DNA of 64,000 nt from Perna viridis (taxonomy: Eukaryota), in the NCBI GenBank assembly GCA_037379345.1, contig CM074512.1, positions 40,548,001-40,612,000 of the forward strand. The letters are read 5' to 3'. Below the pieces are notes generated by a model. The model was not told where the DNA came from. It searched no databases and saw nothing but the letters and a program-made list of their open reading frames with translations. Numbering within the stretch: the stretch's first letter is position 1; each line of letters opens with the position of its first letter. The translations under genes were made by a program, and so were the position numbers. Shown piece after piece: positions 4,364 through 62,215 of the stretch.

Positions 4364-6740
4364 TAATCCCCTGGAATCCTGTTGTTTCATATCCAGTCTG
4401 TGCTTTTAAAGCCAAAAAAATAACATGTCTGTTTTCTGCTACACTACCTATCCTACTTTTTTGTCACCACTCTTAAGCACTGTTGAAAGTCTAGATTGTT
4501 TCCCTATTAACTCAAAGTGTGCTTTATAAAAATAAAATTATTTCCCTATCCCCTGAAAAAGAAATACTGCTAGATTGAAGAAATGTCCAGTAAAAATGAT
4601 TTCAGGCCAACAGAATTTTCAAAAAATTGTTTTCAGTTGGCCAATTAGGAAAAAAGTACAAAATTTGAGAATTGGTCTGGTAGTCTCTGAACCAATTTTT
4701 TGTACACTGCCTACCCTATTTTTCATGCTGGTAGCAGGAAACAAGACTATTATTTTTTTTAGGCCAAACCAGTAGCTCTATGCATTTTCAAGATTTATGA
4801 AGTTTGTGGGTATTTTAGCAAATGTAAAATTTATGGTTTGGGCTAGAAAGACAAAAAGAAAAAAAGACATATTGTGTATAAATTTTTCTTTTGTTTATAT
4901 CAACCCTTAAGCAAGATAAACAGAATAAAGGCAGTTTTGATGTTAAGACAAAAAATATTGCAGTCAGCCTATTGGATGAGATGTGAGAGATAGAAATGGG
5001 GAAAATGATATAGTTGCCGATATAAGGTTTTGGTTAGATACATGCCAGGTTGGTATAGAGATGTTACAGTATGTAATAACTAATCAATAATAATTTTAAG
5101 GTACAGCTCTAAACCCTTCCTGCTTATACTATGTTAGAACATGTACTCTACAGGACATATCAAATAAATGGAAAAATGTAATTCTAAAATAAGGCATGCA
5201 TTTTTTACTAAATTAAAGTTCAAGTTAAAAATGTAAGTGATATTTCCATTCTCAGTATTTTTTTAATTAATCTTGAATATCAAGAGATATAAATTTACAG
5301 CAATTCAGTTATAAAATTTATCAATGAACAAAGCGGTTAACAGTATTGGTAAGCTGTCCTTTGGGAAAAAATGAAACAAGTTACAGTATTCCCTACATAT
5401 ATATCTTCTAATTTCAACCAGTTGAAAATTTCTTCTATAGCATGTACTAATCTATGCATAGACTTTACTACATGATATGTGTGTTCATTAAGTTTCAGAA
5501 TCATTACAATGTAAACTAATACTTTCTCTGAATAATTCAAAGTATTCTTCAGAACAATAATCCCCCATGAGACAAAAGTCTTTGTTCTAAAATTATGCAA
5601 CAGATGCATTAGTGAAATTCTGGAAATTAATATCAAGTTAATGCTGCATTGAATCTCATCAGAGACTATGCTCAGTGGGTACATGTAAGTACTAAATGAA
5701 CATGCCTACTTAAGTACCTGTATGCTCATTCAATAATAATTAAAATATTTTAAAAATTGCTTGAAATACAAGTACATGAATATGAAATGTTAAAGTGATA
5801 TACAAGGATATTTCTAGCCATTTGAGACATCCTTTTCACACATACTGGTGAGATAAACCAAGTGATGTTAGTGATGTTACAATTATTACATTGCATTTTC
5901 CATATCGACCCATGTATCAAATCATGACTTCCATATCAAACTTCTGCCCTTTCTGCTCAAGGGCTGATATGGGTCAAACATTGATGCAAGGGGTGATGTG
6001 GAACAATGCAATGTCATAATATTCTTATCTCATATTTGAATCATTATAAAAAACTTGAAAAAACAATTTCTAGCCATATTTGAATGCAATTTCTATATTT
6101 AAAAACAAATTATTTGATTTATTATCAGAACATTACATTATATACCAATGCAGCCACCGTTGACCACATGCTGACATTGATAATTGATGAAGTTGATGAC
6201 AGGCCAATAACCAATCATAAGACCAGGGCTGTTATAGGCTGGCAACTTCCAGCCTTATTATTGGAGCAAAAACATCCATATCACCTCTAAATATGTGATA
6301 AAACAGTACATGTAAATACAAAGGAATTTCAGCTAGCAATGCATTCTGAATTGGAATACTAATCACTATATCAATTTCTCAAGTGAGAAAAAAATTGAAC
6401 ACCACTAAAAAACTTCAAGACTAGGAAATCTCTGACACCTTGAGGTAAAATTTCGATGTCCTCCAAGTCAGCAATGCCTCGATAGAGAACTTGATATCCT
6501 TTGGTGTCTGAGATTTCTGTCTTGCACTCTCAGCAGTGTTAGATTCCTAATTTATTAATGCCAGTTTCCAGCAGCACTGACTAAGACAATCAGCCAGTTT
6601 GTATCCATGGGACAGTTTGAATACTGACTGTGTAGTCTTGAATGACAAGTATTTAATGCTAAGTCCAATCCTGTTGACATTGTCTGAAACTGAAAGAATT
6701 TTTTTTCGAAAATGCAGTGAGTGTTTCATAAATGACCTAC

Positions 6741-7194
6741 CTTGAATATGTTGAATTTGATCTCCAACCCTCACAGAAAATGTCTCCCCAGGATTAACAT
6801 GAACATGAACTACATGCTGGTGATTGGGCGGGGAACTACTGTTAGTCTGTTGGTCATGCGGACTCTCACATCGCGACAAATGCTGAGGGGAAGTTATCCT
6901 ATTGGGTGAGCTCCCTTGGTCATGATTATGCAGATGACTGTTACAAAGTGGTGCAGATGGATCAACCTCCGGAGAGACAGGCTGATGATTGATGGCGGGG
7001 GCAGGGGAAAATGTAATGGACGAACCCGCACCATTTGGAACGACAGGGGTATCACTGTTACTACTTGTTTCACTGTCTATTCCGTTTTTAAGAGATTCAA
7101 TGGGACTGATATGTCCATTTGTTTTAGCTTCGGAGCAGTTCTGGTTTGTGTTTACTTCTGGCATCTCTCTATCCTTATCAATATCATCATCCAT
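6741..7194 (-). CDS. FNDC3: Probable FNDC3-family (FNDC3A/B, Drosophila mtgo-like) N-terminal coding exon
   Basis: Low-complexity S/P/H-rich N-terminus ending HVVHVHVNPGETFSVRVGDQIQHIQG, resembling the conserved FNDC3 N-terminal VxVNPGExF...QxIxGP motif (recognised from memory). atttcag acceptor (exon start 7223), AAG/gtaggt donor, phase 1. The gene continues beyond position 1. Confidence 0.7.
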
Positions 7195-10100
7195 TGTCCG
7201 TACGGAAACAAAACTATACAACTCTGAAATGTACAATTACTCAAAATAGTTATGACAAGCAGTAATCATTTTAAATTTATAAAAAAAAAATTACAAATAC
7301 TGTTTTGGCATTGTGATGATACTATTTATGACCTTCAAAATCAAAAAAAAATATAAATGTGTTTCAGGTTTCATATTTTCATACACTGGAGTAACTTTAA
7401 GTTTTATACTTTTTTTTGTTTTCTTGAATTGCTTCACTCTGCCTCGTTTTATTATGTGGCAATTATTTTGTTTAAAGTGTGACATATTCAAAAAATTCCA
7501 ATCCAATGTTACGAAAAAATTTTTTTTAGCAGTGATATACCTAAAACACAACCCCATACTAATAATCTGGATATTGTATGCTTTTAACCCATATTCAATA
7601 ATAAATATATAAAAACACAAATGATCTTCTATGACCTGTGCTACTTGTAAACTGGTACCCTGTTTGCTTCAAGGAGTCTGACACTATGAAAGAAATAGTT
7701 TGTCCAAGTAACAAAATAATATGCAAGTGTGTTTTGATGTGTCAGCACAAAAATAACGACCTTTTCCCTACCATCACAAAAAACGAAACATTCCTTCAGA
7801 CTTTGGAAAATATTTATAACCAAGTTGAATAACATTTTTGTTATTCATTATTTTTGTTTTACCACATTTATCATTATATATCATGACATTACAACACCAG
7901 ACATATTTTAATTTCAAAAACATCTGTTAATCAAGACTTGTTAATATATACCAAAACCAATAATCTTTCCATTTTTAATGTATGGGTTAACCAAATATGA
8001 AGTATAAAAATTGAAAATCAATTAGAAACGTCAAGTCAATAATTGTAGCAAATAAAATTCTTACCACGAAATATTCCACGATATTTTTACCAAATTGGAT
8101 GGCATGTCAAACAGTCAAATTTACATAACATATTTACAGAGATGTATACATGATTAATACAGTGTCTTCACATTGTGTATTCTGTGCATGTAATATATTA
8201 AAATTCTAATTTACATGTACATTGTATGTACACTTTTTTATACCTTAAAAAGCTTGAAAGACCAGTTCTATATGTAAAGAACATGAATTTAAGCGAGAAC
8301 TCAAACATACACACTGCATGACCATGTAATGAGTAGTTGGTTTTCAGTTTGCCCAACTATCTACACTATATTCAGTGTTGAACACCATTCATAACAGACC
8401 AACAAATCACTGGAAAATAACCAGTAAATCAAACATTGTACTGCAAACTGACAGTCAAGAAGATTTAAAATGACCAACATTGGTATGTATATTTCACAGT
8501 AAACTAACAGCTCCACTTTGATGTAATATAAGCATGTAATAAACAAGGAAGTTATCTTTTATGATGCCATGGTGCTATATTGACAGAATAAAAATACTAG
8601 GAAAGATAGAATAATCACTCATGAGAAATGACAGTACTCTTTGTACTAATGCTCAAATCTCAAATCTGGCCCAGTTTCTGACCCACACTGAACAGATCAG
8701 AAGCACCTTATCCCTATTTCTGCAATTTTGGCATTCAAGTTTTTAAGAAGTCATGGCTACAGTTCTTGATCTTTTACTACATGTAGTAAGAAAGCCCTTT
8801 GAAATCTTACCTATACCTAATAAACAATAAGAGAATGAATAGTCCTGTCATTAGCCAATATTTGAGTCTTCCAGGCAAAACTTTTGCCAAAAGATAACCG
8901 AGACAAATACAAATGTATAAATACACAGGCTTACTTTTTAACTCTTAAGTACTATGTAGATACTCCAGATGAATACAAGTTTGCTCCCATGTTCGTTTGG
9001 CTATACATACATGAATACCACTAAACAAATTAACAGGTCTATAAATTTCATGAATCTTTTTCCCCAATGGTAATTTTTGTTATTATTTCATGACTTTTTC
9101 ACCCACACAATAATCAAATATAAATTATTTCATTTTTGAATTTGTACGAAGTGTTAAAAATGATTACCATCGAAATTCAACCAATTTTATTAGGATTCTA
9201 CATAAACTATGATGACGTTAAATATCAAAGTTTAAATGAAATACAATGTAGCTGATCATTTGTCCATACCTTAGTAGACATCCTATGGCAGGTATTGCCC
9301 TAAAAGCATTTTCTCCATTTTACTTCAACAACATGTAGATTATATATACATTGGTTTTTTTTCATAACAAACCTACCAGTAATAGGTATGCAAAAGAAGT
9401 CTACATCTGTTGTATGACGTCAAATAAATAGCTTAAGACTTTAGGAGAAGTTAAGAGTAAATTTTTTCAGCATTTATGGTCAATCCTATCAGGGGAGGAC
9501 TTCTACATTTTTACGTAATTCAACATAAAAAGTTACAAGTAGGATAAACAAATACTTCTAAAAATTAACCATTTCAAAAACTTTTGTGGTGTCAAAAAAC
9601 ATTAGATAATCTGACTGTAGGTAACATTACTGACATATTCCAGTATTTGTATTGAAATAAAAAAAATTTAATTTGAATATTTTGTATGGTAGATATGGAA
9701 AACAAATACAAAAAAACAGCTAAAATAAGTTTTTCCCTTGAGTAGAGCTCAGGTTTACATAAGCAAAGTACAAAGACTAGAGAAACTAAAGTACTCCTTT
9801 GTAGACCAAGATGGGGGCATCTACATGTACATTTGTACATGTACATGTGCATTGTACCTATACAATAAAACTCAATAACTCGTTGATTTTTTTTTTAATA
9901 TGGATGCTTTCACTTTGTCACAACATGAACAGTAACATACATGTTTTAACACTAATCCCTCTACATGTAGTACAATAAACATGCAGAATAGCTCTCAATA
10001 ACTTTGTTACTAGGTGTTTCGATTATCCTCCCTAATGAATTTGTATGAATTTTAAAGGTTTTCATCCAGATAACTTAGCAAAAGACTATCAAATCATGTA

Positions 10101-43744: not shown

Positions 43745-43918
43745 CTGTAAAGCACAAATTTTAATTCAATAATAACCTGCTATATCCTGCAATGCTTCAG
43801 GGCAAGTGTTCTAGAATTCATGTTCCTGTTATTAGAAAGTAAATTTTCATGACTTAACCTTGGACAGGCTGAAAATTCTTAAGTTCTAAAAAACGTCAAA
43901 AGCAACTTTTTAATTTAC

Positions 43919-44086
43919 CTGAACTTTTTCCAGAATGCCTTCTCTACATTTGCAAAGAATTGACAGCAAGTCCATGATCAGTTTGGCTGGATTGTTCATT
44001 TCATCATCTGAGAAATTACCATCACAGTAGCCATAGTATTCCTCATATAGATACATATTCCTGATTTCCTTCCAGTGCATTTGATC
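43919..44086 (-). CDS. EF-hand/CaaX gene exon
   Basis: 168 nt, phase 0/0; DQMHWKEIRNMYLYEEYYGYCDGNFSDDEMNNPAKLIMDLLSILCKCREGILEKVQ. Confidence 0.8.
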
Positions 44087-44447
44087 CTGTTGGTAGTAAG
44101 TAAGATATCTAACTTGTGGGTTCATGTTGGAAGAAAACAAAGTTCTCCAATGTGCAAAATCAGAAATATCCATAACCCTAAAACCTTGTGTCTCACAGTG
44201 TTTGACCTTGGGAGAAAGTCTACTGTTTTGATTAAAAGCAAATATATTTCACATAAGAGTCTATCAAATATTCAAAGTGATAGGAGATTTTTTACTTGAA
44301 GACTTATTAACAACAAAACATTTTCTCTAAGAATATAATTTATATAAAAATACTTCTGTAATTTGTCATCACTTTTTCAACTGTTATCTTAACAAGAGAT
44401 AGCTGCCTTGACCACAAGGTTTCTTTTACTTAAAAAATGTACTTTAC

Positions 44448-52890: not shown

Positions 52891-54859
52891 ACTTTGGTAA
52901 ACATGTAGTTGATGTTTAAAGTTTACAAAAAGTGTATTTAAAAGTCTGCTGTTCCTCTTTATTGAAAGTGCTTCCTGGCAGTACAGCTGAATTTCACATT
53001 TTCATAAAGTTTCAAATTTACTTTTCTTAAAAACCTTCCTATAAAAAGTAATACCAACACACAAGATAGAAGAGTCCATACAAAAATATTTATCCTAAAA
53101 TACAAATAGAAACACTTGCCTGAAATCTGTTTTAATTTCCTGGACTCTAAATGTCCATCCACAAGCCCTCTAAAATGGCAATTAACTTCATTTAAAGGGG
53201 TCTGAAATTCTCTGACCATTTTTAAATTCTCTTGGCTTAAGAGGTCACTACTTGTAAGCCTATTAAATAGAAGCAATAAAGTATTATGAAATGATAGATT
53301 AAATGTAAAGCCTATTTTCTTTCATTTTCATTCAATGTGTAAACATATTTTTGGTCAAAATAAGATCTTTATCAGACAGAAAAACAAGTATGATTGCATA
53401 TAATCAGTCTGACGTAAAAGCATAATATTCATAAACTATCCACAGCAACTTGATTGTGTTTAAAATTAAGTGTGAATGTACTACATGTATTTGATTCCTA
53501 ATCTAAATATATGAATTTCAAAACTTCATGTACAATCTGTATTAAAAGAGATGATATTCTTCTTTTATCACATAAACAATGCAATTTGTGAATAGTTCAA
53601 GTGACTCATGCATCCTGCCAAAGGTTTTACTCAGAAGTTACTCATTTTAAAGCCCCAAGCTTTTCCAATTGAGAAAGGGTCAATGATTTTAAACTGTCTT
53701 ATGGGAGTGTAATTCATATATTCCTTGTAAAGTACAAGTTTTTTACGGTTAAAATATTGCAAATAAAATGTAAATGTTCTGCTTGACTCAAGGATTGAGA
53801 TTCTCAAAATTTTAATTCCAATTACTGCAGTGTAAACTGAGTGTGTAAAGGAATTGATTTTTCTGAAGACCAGTATTTTCTCAAACATGAAAATTCCTTG
53901 TTTTGAAGAATTCACTAAATACCAATTTTCAAGATATTTGTTTTTCCCTCCTGTAATACTGGTATGTTCGTATTAGTAATTTTGTCTTTATTTTCATAAG
54001 TTCTTTTTTAAAAATTACGAATATAAAGGATTATCCATTAATGACTCCACACTTCTATCAACTATACAGTAAGTGATCTGAAAGTCATAAAGTCGTCAGT
54101 TTATTTCTTCTTCTAGTCAATCAGTAGTCTAATTCTTATAAGTTCTACAATGTCATTAATACTAGAATACCTTATTAATTACATTGAAAGGCCAAATACA
54201 CTTAAATGGTAGATTCTCACCCAACCTTCACAAAAAAATATGGGGTAGGTGGGAGGTTTTTACTTTCTTACCAGATATTTGCTAGCATAGTTTTGCTATA
54301 TGAAGTACAACAATGTTCTAAATCTATAGCAACATCAGTTTCAGAGAAGAAACATCATTTTAGTCACAAAGAAATGAAATGTGTGTATTATAGTAACTCA
54401 ATACTAAAAACTGACAAGAAAAAAATCCTGATTTTGAAATTCCTTTCCTAATTTAAAAAAAATTTCAGCCAATGCTTTAGGGCCGGGAGGGAATGAGAAT
54501 CTAATAATTAATTTTATTTGGCCTGACACGTAACAGAATAAGCCTGTCGTAACTATATTGCTTCTAAAGTCTCTTTATACCAGTTTGTTAATATGCAATT
54601 AATTAAAAGCCTGTTTACATAATCAAAGTTTTCCATAAAAATCTTTGACAAAGTTTTTTTTACCTGTGTAAACCTGTAAAACTGGACTTAATGGAATATA
54701 CCTCAATCTTATTTTCTAATTGTTTTAGATGGAATTTGACCATTCAAAATTTTCAGTTTGAACATAGAATTAAACAAGTACTATCTTTAAAATAAAGATA
54801 GTGACACAGTAAAATTTGTTTTTTTTTAGTTATAGTTTTCAATACATTTTCGAACACTT

Positions 54860-56142: not shown

Positions 56143-56560
56143 TACACACACACACACACAAATTTATTTGGTATATTGCTATATCATGCATTGGCAGTAA
56201 GCCGACTATATCTGGTGGAGCACTGAACAATGTGGGAATGACAAAGTTTAGTAAACGACATGATTTCCAAGTCTTGTAGATCAGTTTGCGGCCATTTTCC
56301 TAATAAAATTGTGTAAAAATCCTCATCATCATAACACGAGAGTTCCTGGTAAAGTGTCAGAGGAAAGTTTTCAATTAAAATGTCTGACCAGATATCACGC
56401 ATAACGTTTGTGCATGGGCAACTGCAGGAAACATGCAAGAACAAATCTCTATATATTCGACCACAAATGGAGCAATATCTCTCTGAAAATTCAGAAATGT
56501 CACATAATAATTTCGTAATAATACACACCACAAGACTTATTTACATTTGTGTCAGTTTTG
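56143..56560 (-). mobile_element. 5'-truncated non-LTR retrotransposon 3' end (ORF2 C-terminal zinc finger)
   Basis: ORF 56184-56531 has CSIC-x8-H-x4-C...R..W (CCHC knuckle typical of LINE ORF2 C-termini), followed by AATAAA and a (TG)n tail. Confidence 0.65.
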
Positions 56561-58155: not shown

Positions 58156-59409
58156 TCAATCACTATCAGTATCAGACATAACCATCACCCTGTTAACAAC
58201 ACCTATTCTACTACTTCTTGTTCTTTTCTGAGATAAGATAGAACTAGAACCAATGTTATTGTCTTCCACTAAAAAGGATAAAGCAGAGTTATTGTCCTTG
58301 TTAACATTCTCCACTTCTGAGTTGCTTTTCTTAGTAATATTAGATGAAGATTTTACTGGACTATTACCCTTCATAAGTTTTTTACCCTTATCAACTTTTT
58401 TAGATACTGTACACATAGCTTCAGCCTCTTTTTTATTTGAATTATTAGTCTTTTGCCTCTTTACCAGAGGAACTTCCGGTTGTCTTTCATCAAACTGTGC
58501 TCTCTGTGTTTTCTGTATTTTTACAGCACTAGAAGTCTCATTTCTCTGTGTTTTTGACTTAGTCTTTTTCACTTTATCAAATGATTTTACTTCATCTTCC
58601 AAGAATCCTTTTTGAGGTTCCTTTGGTTGGTCCACTGCAAATTGTTCAGTAGCATGACCTGCCATCCCTATTCTGATTTTTGGCCTTGTCCTTTTACCTT
58701 GACCTGAGGATGAGTCAGTCACACTCTGAGATAATGTCACTCCCTGAGATTCATTCACAGTGTTGTTATTGAGATTGTTAGAAGTATTATTGCTAAGAAC
58801 TTGTTGAGTAATTGGAGTCACATATTTTTGCTTAGGTTTAGAGGTAGTTTGTGCCGATCTTTTAGCAGGCTTTCTCGACTCATTACTTACACTATTTAAC
58901 TCTGTTATTATTGAAATCCCTGTTTTAGGTATAGATGTTTCAGGCTTTGCACTTGCATTTCCTGAAACCAAACTGTCTTCAACAATATTCTCATAATCCA
59001 AATTAGCAATTAATTCATCTCCACTAGATTCACTACTGCTCTCCTCAGAAAGATTAACTTCATCAGCCACAACAGTCCTTCGCCTCTGGCCTACTGAACT
59101 TTTACCAACACCTTTACCTTTTCCTCTACCTCTACCTCTCCCTCTTCCACGACCTTTGCCCCTAGTAATTTGTATTGCCATAGCCTTAGCCTCCTGCATT
59201 CCAGCAGACATAGGTTTGGATAGAGGTGTAAGTATTGTAGGAGGTACAGGTGCCGTTATTGACAGATTAATTAGGTTACCAGAAGGTTCTATCTCTGTCT
59301 CATCTTTCCCTTGTATAATATTTAATGCTCTCTGTAATCTTTTACTTTTAATGTTCTTAGGTTGCATGAAACTTTCAGGTTGGAAAAAACTGTTAATTCT
59401 TGTCTGTGT
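58156..59409 (-). CDS. ERCC5: XPG/ERCC5 terminal exon: PIP box and long basic/disordered tail
   Basis: atttcag acceptor at 59411-59410, phase 0; begins TQTRINSFFQ (PCNA-binding PIP box) and KSKRLQRAL; in frame with the 403-aa ORF ending at 58156. Confidence 0.92.
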   Translation of the reverse strand, partial: TQTRINSFFQPESFMQPKNIKSKRLQRALNIIQGKDETEIEPSGNLINLSITAPVPPTILTPLSKPMSAGMQEAKAMAIQITRGKGRGRGRGRGRGKGKGVGKSSVGQRRRTVVADEVNLSEESSSESSGDELIANLDYENIVEDSLVSGNASAKPETSIPKTGISIITELNSVSNESRKPAKRSAQTTSKPKQKYVTPITQQVLSNNTSNNLNNNTVNESQGVTLSQSVTDSSSGQGKRTRPKIRIGMAGHATEQFAVDQPKEPQKGFLEDEVKSFDKVKKTKSKTQRNETSSAVKIQKTQRAQFDERQPEVPLVKRQKTNNSNKKEAEAMCTVSKKVDKGKKLMKGNSPVKSSSNITKKSNSEVENVNKDNNSALSFLVEDNNIGSSSILSQKRTRSSRIGVVNRVMVMSDTDSD

Positions 59410-60273: not shown

Positions 60274-60358
60274 ATGTCTCAAATTGAGTTGTTTCAACAT
60301 TGGTATCATACTCTCATCACACTTGTCTTGGTTCCAACCAAACTTACATTTTGTAAAA
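60274..60358 (-). CDS. ERCC5: XPG/ERCC5 penultimate exon
   Basis: 85 nt, phase 2 to 0; FTKCKFGWNQDKCDESMIPMLKQLNLRH (XPG FGW...K.DE...P.LKQL motif); gtaagt donor. Confidence 0.9.
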
Positions 60359-61250
60359 CTAAAAATTGGTCAAGGATTCTTGTCTTAACTTATAAATATA
60401 CAATGTAAGTTTGGCAATACTCATGTAAAGTTTTAAGTATAGGTCTATCTAAAAATCATATCTCAAGATAATAGATAAAACTGTTCAAATATATTTGTTA
60501 TGTGATAAAAAAAAACTTTTCCTATTCATTTGTTGCATCTGCTATATTCATGAAATATTTTTTGACTGGCTACAGTGTACAAATTCTGACAGAAAAATTT
60601 CCAATACTTTTCTATAAACCAATTTTCATTTGCACTCTTATTGTCAAATGCAGTTTCTATGAGGCATACTAAAGGATTCCTAATCAAAAACTTTGGGGAA
60701 GTGCATGAATCACTAATAATAAGCTTCTGCCTGGTTTTAAGGCAGAGCTGTACTTCATCAGCAAAAGTTCCAGAATTTCTACTGTTGACCGATTTGTATT
60801 TAGTTGGCTACTTATGAGTAATTTAATTAGATACATAGATTTAAGAATTTTTATTTTGTTTTATTGTGAAACTTATTAGTGCAGAAAAAGTTCCAGGTCA
60901 CATTTTTATTGTGGTATGAAAACACAAATTGTTAAGATTGTAGTTTTTCTGAACAACAAATTCATATGCTTTGGAACAGGAGTTGTGACCCATTCTTGTG
61001 AAATTATAGGATCACATGACAAGTCTTACACATCCAAATTTGCATTTAAATACTATAATAATGGAATAATTTAAATGTAGCTTATGACACTGTTTAAACT
61101 TCTTTAATTAAAACTTCTGTATTTCAATTAAAAGCATTACTTTAAAAGGCAAATATTTCAAAGGGCAGATATAAATGTTCCTGTATTAAGTAATTAGAAC
61201 TCAAAGTCTATCAATAAATAATGCAGCAAAAACATTAATAAAAAGGATTC
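60359..61250 (-). other. ERCC5: U12-type (minor spliceosome) intron with GA-AG termini
   Basis: 5' end GAATCCTTTT (U12 consensus RTATCCTTT with T to A at +2). Branch point TCCTTGAC at 60376-60369 lies ~11 nt before the AG, with no long polypyrimidine tract. Splicing keeps the frame (IR-D-FTKCKFGW). Confidence 0.8.
60571..60752 (+). mobile_element. Short dispersed element family B (interrupted copy at 28141-28751)
   Basis: Shares attctgacag...tacttttc and ...catgaatcact...aagcttctg...ttttaaggcagagctgtac with 28141-28180 and 28618-28751. Confidence 0.7.
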
Positions 61251-61353
61251 TCTCTAATCAAATCTAGTTCTGGCTGACTCCAGGAAAAGTTTTCAGCAGA
61301 GTCATCAACCTCTGGACTCAGGTAGGCTGTAACTACTCGATCATTAGGGAAAC
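61251..61353 (-). CDS. ERCC5: XPG/ERCC5 exon followed by a U12-type intron
   Basis: ttttaag acceptor; 103 nt, phase 1 to 2; GFPNDRVVTAYLSPEVDDSAENFSWSQPELDLIR (XPG GFPN...AYL.P.VD.S...F.W..P motif). Confidence 0.9.
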
Positions 61354-61545
61354 CTTAAAAAAACAAAAACGACAGTAAGCATTATTGTATTACAAATTCA
61401 GGAAAGAAAATTTGCTTCCTATAAAACTGATGTTATACAACCAGTAGAATATGGCTTCAACAATCTTCCAAGGAGACAATGTAGAAGGTGGAAATAAAAT
61501 GAGAATAAAAAGCTATGCAGAATGCAGCATTATATGACTGCAGTG

Positions 61546-62215
61546 GTCGAACCTGGAACAGTTGGGGCAAGTGTGGACACTATATTAGTTTTTGACACAC
61601 TTGTATGCATAGGGCCTTACAATTCATTTTGGACATAACAACTGGATTGGACACTATAATGCACAAGAAAAAATTTTCAAAATCTGACCAAAAATTAAAA
61701 AACATGATTTTTTGGGGTGTGGTCCCTTGGACTCCTTGTAACTCAAAAACCATAAGAGATATCTGAAAGCTGATTGGAAAATGCAAGCAGCAATTTCATA
61801 AGGAATCCAATAAAAAAAATAATTTGAAATAGACCAAAAATAAAGAAGTTGATTTGTTTGGGGTGTGGCCCCTTTGACTCCTTATAATTCTATAATGGTC
61901 CAAAATGCATTATATCTGCTTATCATATTTGTTTAACAAAATAAAATAAGGAGCACAATTTAAAAATAATGATCAAAATCGGAAGAAAAACAAACATTCT
62001 GCATTGGTTTTAATAATAAACCTATTTTTACCCTTTTTGATCCCTTTTTCTAACACAGTAGGGGCAAATAATCCAAATAGATAAAGGAACCTTCCTTTAG
62101 TGGTTAGCAAAATAAAATTGAAGTTTCATAACAATTGGTCATAACAACTGTATTTACTGCACCAAAATTTAGTGTCTACGGATTGTAATAATGACAGGAA
62201 CGAGTACGACAACAC
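61546..62215 (+). repeat. Dispersed repeat beginning gtcgaacc.gaacagttggggcaagt (motif also near 18990, 20327, 25474, 62654)
   Basis: Five diverged copies of a ~40-80 bp motif; internal duplicated ggggtgtgg.ccct.tggactcctt segment. Confidence 0.55.

Follow-up and report, generated by a model that had tools for sequence, protein, structure and literature searches.

A U12-type intron with GA-AG termini in a mussel XPG gene, very probably excised at its unusual donor

The 3' part of a mussel XPG/ERCC5 gene lies on the minus strand of the window, that is, the whole stretch of 64,000 nucleotides that was analysed. It is very probably interrupted by an ancient U12-type intron that carries an A instead of a T at its second position (+2), and that is removed exactly at its GA and AG ends, likely by the minor spliceosome. 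The identity of the splicing machinery is suggested by the signals at both ends of the intron, while the position of the cut is given by transcript contigs and the A at +2 by genomic DNA from separate studies.

The gene is identified as XPG/ERCC5 by its XPG-N and XPG-I domains and by its collinearity with ERCC5 proteins, its N-terminal exons being located upstream of the window. The six exons on the minus strand of the window (64000-63802, 63273-63129, 62434-62346, 61353-61251, 60358-60274 and 59409-58156) join into one stop-free frame with its stop at 58156, and four of the five introns between them are ordinary GT-AG introns. The first of these exons belongs to the XPG-I domain and is cut by the end of the window, the gene running on to G000:C2:40620197 in the genome assembly (G000); the second and third have ordinary GT-AG flanks. 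The fourth, of 103 nt, encodes GFPNDRV...PELDLIR plus two nucleotides of a split codon, and is supported by homology and by the matches of spliced contigs from the runs X9, X14 and X15, which end at 61251. It is followed by the phase-2, 892-nt intron with GA-AG termini (60359..61250) and by the penultimate exon, of 85 nt, which encodes FTKCKFGW...LNLRH and at whose first base, 60358, spliced contigs of X9 and X15 start exactly. The last coding exon starts with TQTRINSFF, aligned to human QTQLRIDSFF, which we take to be the PIP box.

The mussel protein shows 80-81% identity with four Mytilus ERCC5 proteins over 242 aa and, in a tree of 16 rows, one unrelated row having been removed, groups with Mytilus ERCC5 at 100/100. 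Judged by these sequence relationships, the DNA comes from a mytilid mussel that lies outside the Mytilus clade. The XPG exon gives one match only in G000, so that the assembly contains no retrocopy, and a retrocopy or paralogue was rejected on this ground. Intron 1 of the same gene (614 nt; G000:C2:40620109-40619496, minus strand, L002/L003) is a canonical GT-AG U12 intron, which, together with the GA intron, gives the XPG gene two minor introns. High-copy interspersed repeats are found in two XPG introns, at 61456-62160 and, within the GA intron, at approximately 60469-60755; depth in the run X3 reaches 57,800 across the two and 13,700 in the latter, against about 70 in the flanks. Elsewhere in the window, a 229-aa open frame at 6547-7236 (minus strand), which ends in HVVHVHVNPGETFSVRVGDQIQHIQG and has no Pfam match, presumably resembles the N-terminus of FNDC3 proteins. 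Other probable exons are located at 43910-44248, 52959-53321 and 56184-56540, and six open reading frames of the window outside XPG gave no Pfam match over the cut-off.

On the minus strand, the exon upstream of the intron ends in ...TTGATTAGAGA at 61251, and the intron (61250-60359) starts with GAATCCTTTTTATT and ends with AATCCTTGACCAATTTTTAG. Its 5' splice site, GAATCCTTTT (61241..61250), is backed by DNA contigs and by pairing with U11 and U6atac, and contains the U12 donor core ATCCTT at +3..+8. The RT found at +1/+2 of canonical U12 donors is replaced by GA, with the A (base 61249) also seen in the runs X3 and X4, which places the intron outside the canonical subtypes GT-AG and AT-AC. 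At the opposite end, the branch-point motif TCCTTRAC is represented by TCCTTGAC at 60376-60369, whose branch A, at 60370, lies 11 nt from the AG of the 3' splice site (60359..60360), the distance given in the original prediction; the same branch-point variant occurs in the orthologous introns of loci L053 and L089. From the frequencies of the window, a chance of about 2e-7 is obtained for finding ATCCTT at the homology-defined donor and also TCCTTRAC no more than 25 nt from the acceptor. Joining in phase 2 reads SQPELDLIR-D-FTKCKFGW, and the expected collinearity of this product with XPG is found in the homologues: 84 of 120 span the junction with 12 aa on either side, 74 of them gap-free. When every GT-AG, GC-AG and AT-AC pairing of a donor within 61300-61201 with an acceptor within 60420-60301 was tried, none left DLIR and FTKCKFGW both intact and free of indels, in agreement with the earlier statement that there is no GT or AT donor at the homology-defined end of the exon.

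Some further features of the donor were observed. It sits at the end of an AGAGAGA run, and the split codon is D here, while it is L in Mytilus and in mussel-like open reading frames (window 61249-61258). Speculatively, the GA may have arisen when the final bases of the exon changed as well, perhaps through slippage. The donor word GAATCCTT at 61243-61251 recurs on the minus strand at 60372-60380, just upstream of the branch point, and at 60671-60679, within the intron repeat, and neither copy is used in the observed joint.

Eight of 24 available runs were examined, of which X3 and X4, from two studies and neither of them ranked highest, are DNA-like, and X9, X12, X14, X15, X17 and X20 are RNA-like. 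The RNA nature of the latter is a guess, none of them being recorded as RNA, and X14 and X15 have near-identical records and were therefore counted as one dataset, which leaves five RNA-like datasets. Two of the five back the junction 60358^61251, one directly (X14) and one by coordinates (X9), and no other junction appears in any of the five. The X14 joint skips 892 letters, has the ends CT..TC on the plus strand (that is, GA..AG on the minus strand), allows no shift and has a depth of 27.3. Its short side is 30 letters long, one under the 31-letter bridging rule, presumably because this is what a contig graph with k=31 leaves at a branch. In X9 and X15, a 3012-nt contig passes through three exons and its match ends at 61251 with exactly 30 letters left, while the next contig (record 22 in X9 and record 1 in X15) begins at 60358 and joins 60274 to 59409. 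By these coordinates, X9 appears to fit the same junction, though not as a listed joint. The remaining three datasets (X12, X17 and X20) have no exon contig and are silent on the junction. The original prediction had placed the junction at 61251^60358, and the only joint listed across the intron, that of X14, uses this GA donor and not a different canonical one. An alternative canonical junction was rejected, as none preserves the homologous sequence and none is found among the listed joints of X14, in which contigs drop rare forms.

The identity of base 61249 has been established from DNA. The X3 contig covering 60726-61591 has no letter differing from the window and no other letter listed at 61249, with a depth of 69.9 over the donor and of 66.8-71.1 in the flanks. 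The X4 contig (60726-61596) has no differing letter either, at a depth of 7.2. At several other places X3 differs from the window, which indicates another animal or haplotype, and the presence of A at +2 in both X3 and X4 excludes an assembly error at this base. The GA donor had been proposed as a +2 substitution whose base should be looked at in other individuals, and it reads A, with no T, in two DNA runs from separate studies.

From the perspective of its evolution, the GA intron derives from an ancient minor intron. Metagenome contigs were scanned with a degenerate exon-end pattern that left +1/+2 free and required ATCCTY, so that orthologues without the U12 motif could not appear, and the scan returned 84 loci, which BLASTP of the upstream exon divided into 33 XPG loci and 51 chance matches. 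Within the reach of this pattern, all 33 XPG loci (24 distinct; 17 GT and 7 AT) carry RTATCCT at the same codon and in the same phase, which is consistent with the ancient U12 intron originally claimed. For 14 of the 24 distinct loci, the following exon and a U12-like branch point could also be located, with AG after GT and AC after AT. Some of the XPG loci resemble coral (94%, P0110), turtle (85%) or fish (85%) proteins closely, the others having weaker best matches (59-79%) among invertebrate homologues. Four short mussel-like open reading frames (P0121-P0124), 86% like Mytilus, read DLIR-L-YP, which implies a T at +2 in another mussel-like lineage; this T, together with the GT or AT of the orthologues, marks GA as derived. 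The Mytilus proteins themselves say nothing on the +2 base. Five vertebrate and one clam protein models (P0038, P0061, P0066, P0096, P0115 and P0009) read through the donor as xYP(F), and the U12 intron is thus mis-annotated in these public ERCC5 models.

The split codon of the mussel intron is that of human E960, and two vertebrate-like loci (L023 and L078) have AT-AC at the same position. We take the AT-AT U12 intron of human ERCC5 to be the same intron as the GA one of the mussel (intron 13). That human ERCC5 contains minor-class splice sites, as stated in the original prediction, agrees with the AT-AT U12 intron listed in Table 3 of PMC1557818. The correspondence in position with the human gene holds for the split codon; Table 3 leaves the intron unnamed.

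The components of the minor spliceosome encoded in G000 have ordinary pairing sequences. Two copies each of U11, U12 and U6atac are over the Rfam cut-offs, and the 5' end of U11, the branch-pairing box of U12 and the AAGGAGA box of U6atac equal the Rfam consensus, for which reason a compensatory change in these snRNAs was rejected. Positions +4..+10 of the donor pair with the U11 of the genome through one G-U and six Watson-Crick pairs, and +4..+9 pair with the AAAGGA box of U6atac at six out of six positions. SNRNP48 was not located in the genome, where PF05253 gave only a two-finger locus on C14, an arrangement that we assume to be GTSF1-like. The donor as a whole is read by several factors. 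According to PMC3584512 and PMC7367187, U11 forms no base pairs with the first three positions of the intron, whose recognition falls to U11-48K. PMC11874965 assigns positions -1 to +4 to SNRNP48, SNRNP35 and U11 stem-loop III, and SNRNP48 cross-links to U+2 according to bioRxiv 2023.12.22.573053. Terminal dinucleotides do not define the U12 class, as is also stated in PMC3584512.

Since U11 does not pair with the first three bases, a change at +2 should leave the helices intact. The substitution of T by A would thus spare both the U11 and the U6atac helix, and its cost would be restricted to the contacts of SNRNP48, SNRNP35 and U11 stem-loop III and to the contact of the catalytic core with +2. 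The cut would be held at its ancestral position by the strong donor tail, by the U12 branch point and by the lack of a frame-preserving GT. The +2 A is probably a lineage-specific, tolerated substitution that arose from a GT-AG state; GA would be fixed or at least common in the species, and removal of the intron is perhaps slower. Reading through the intron leads to a stop after ENPFY, five codons in, and a protein made from unspliced transcripts would be expected to lack the last part of the nuclease domain together with the C-terminal tail.

An extension of this explanation, to which we give a rather low probability, is that the GA donor is maintained by selection as a putative slow switch that limits the rate at which full-length XPG is made. 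That U12 introns are removed slowly and so form a rate-limiting step is a published hypothesis (PMC3584512), and intron-internal contigs are present in each of the five RNA-like datasets, with two reaching into the next exon, which is a weak and ambiguous hint in this direction. However, X9 and X15 also contain contigs within the next, ordinary intron, the parts of the gene cannot be ranked by contig depth, DNA carry-over is possible, and it is the spliced form that assembled into the long contig. Additionally, none of the 24 distinct orthologues has GA, nor does the mussel-like relative, and hence it is not conserved. Regarding the intron contigs themselves, they are of low depth and lie within 60329-61113 of the window, with one entering the next exon in X9 and one in X14/X15; they may correspond to pre-mRNA, lariat species or DNA carry-over, which cannot be told apart. 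One intron contig of X12 has its end at 60372, two bases short of the branch A, and no contig across the exon-donor boundary is listed in the RNA-like datasets.

It is improbable, to a greater degree than such a switch, that the mussel lineage has relaxed the reading of +2 by its minor spliceosome or that an extended donor tail compensates for the A. If this were true, GA minor introns would be enriched genome-wide, and the site would be a naturally occurring suppressor system for the +2 U, which hardly varies, and one that possibly throttles XPG output. In a survey of 59 exon loci from three families (10/10 NHE, 19/19 RasGEF and 30/56 calpain matches), too small to weigh either way, there was one clear U12 donor at a matched exon end, with GT, and the counts of NNATCCTT gave GA twice in sense and twice in antisense orientation, without GA excess. 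The surveyed U12 donor is of the canonical GT type and belongs to a calpain exon end (L133, G000:C3). Of the 16 bases at the 5' end of the U6atac of the genome, 15 can pair with the tail of the GA intron. The resulting duplex has an energy of -11.4 kcal/mol, which 71 of 853 random tails attain and which, with the same U6atac, 3 of 24 canonical orthologues exceed. Given this ordinary energy, extended pairing was rejected as compensation and is not counted as support. Both U6atac copies (L008 and L009) have UA at bases 8-9, where the Rfam consensus has AU, a difference that would allow two more pairs, with +11/+12 of the GA intron. The two U12 donors of the XPG gene share ATCCTTTT(T)ATTAATGTT at 17 of 18 aligned bases (window 61231-61248; G000:C2:40620091-40620107), and the 9-mer ATTAATGTT, which lies beyond the consensus, occurs eight times in 188,000 bases. 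Candidate origins of this shared tail are chance, an extension kept by selection and a past conversion between the two donors.

The simple tolerance of the +2 A, which we prefer, also has to be weighed against a GA/GT polymorphism, in which the spliced transcripts would come from GT alleles and GA would be weak or null. Contigs collapse rarer alleles, so that a low-frequency GT allele would not show, and the spliced contigs do not reveal which +2 base the animals of the RNA-like runs carry. However, the three DNA sources that cover the base (the window, X3 and X4) all read A, and the depth of X3 over the donor equals that of its flanks with no other letter at 61249, which makes this alternative very unlikely.

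Slightly less probable still is the removal of the intron by the major spliceosome as a U2-type GA-AG intron. Its AG follows a short T run, and 11 of the 17 positions at -20..-4 are pyrimidines, within the 10-14 of the neighbouring introns. In contrast, its donor has only 2/9 matches to the U1-type consensus, compared with 5-8/9 in the four neighbouring introns, and it is fully complementary to U11 and U6atac. The intron also retains a U12 branch point, 11 nt from its AG, and the 33 orthologous loci found are all U12. U2-type GA-AG introns occur in FGFR genes and in copepods, where they keep a U1-type donor context; the mussel intron has the same dinucleotides and differs in its poor U1 match and in its U12 signals at both ends. 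Least probable of all is an assembly error or contig artefact (a wrong base, a chimeric or template-switch junction or a retrocopy), since, even with a joint side of only 30 letters, guessed run types and a 9-mer, AGAATCCTT, found at the donor and again shortly before the branch point, two other studies show the same base, the joint has no microhomology and lands on the AG and not on the AGAATCCTT repeat, the exon is single in G000 and the join restores the protein without gaps.

GA-AG termini have been described before in minor introns. A U12 intron of this type is found in zebrafish actr10 (Lin et al. 2010, PMC2831892), and that work notes that such termini do not seem to be challenged by any experimental data. 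The subtype is repeated in a review (PMC8199999), and it accounts for 14 counts, or 0.019% of about 73,700 conserved animal minor introns, in Table S1 of Larue and Roy 2023 (PMC10639083), where U12-type GC-AG has 123 and GG-AG 21 counts. The term GA-AG is absent from the accessible portion of PMC11347168. Zebrafish actr10 and these 14 counts share with the mussel intron the GA-AG in a U12 context and orthologues with GT-AG or AT-AC. Mussel XPG is a different gene in a different phylum from zebrafish actr10, and here the base has been checked in independent DNA runs and the junction is present in a transcript contig. The 14 counts are not itemised by gene in the table, and may or may not include XPG. 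In the openly searchable literature on XPG/ERCC5 U12 introns, there was no report of a GA donor.

For the U12 intron of ERCC5, Table 3 of Sheth et al. 2006 (PMC1557818) lists AT-AT termini in human and AT-AC termini in mouse; this is the same gene with non-canonical minor-intron termini, as in the mussel. The human intron departs at its last base, whereas the mussel one departs at +2, the position that SNRNP48 reads. U12-type GC-AG and GG-AG introns (PMC1557818 and PMC2831892) resemble the mussel intron in having a natural +2 substitution in an otherwise perfect U12 donor, with C or G in place of the A found here; among these three, GA is the least frequent. In minor introns the U at +2 hardly ever varies, and SNRNP48 cross-links to it (bioRxiv 2023.12.22.573053). 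A natural +2 A, carried by independent animals and spliced in the sole copy of a core DNA-repair gene, is a better-validated test case for tolerance at this position, and could inform the judging of +2 variants in human minor introns. Gene callers will mis-annotate the GA junction, as several already do with the canonical U12 donor. Set beside these known systems, the GA-AG intron of mussel XPG is a well-supported further case of a rare, already described subtype, and not a new kind of intron.
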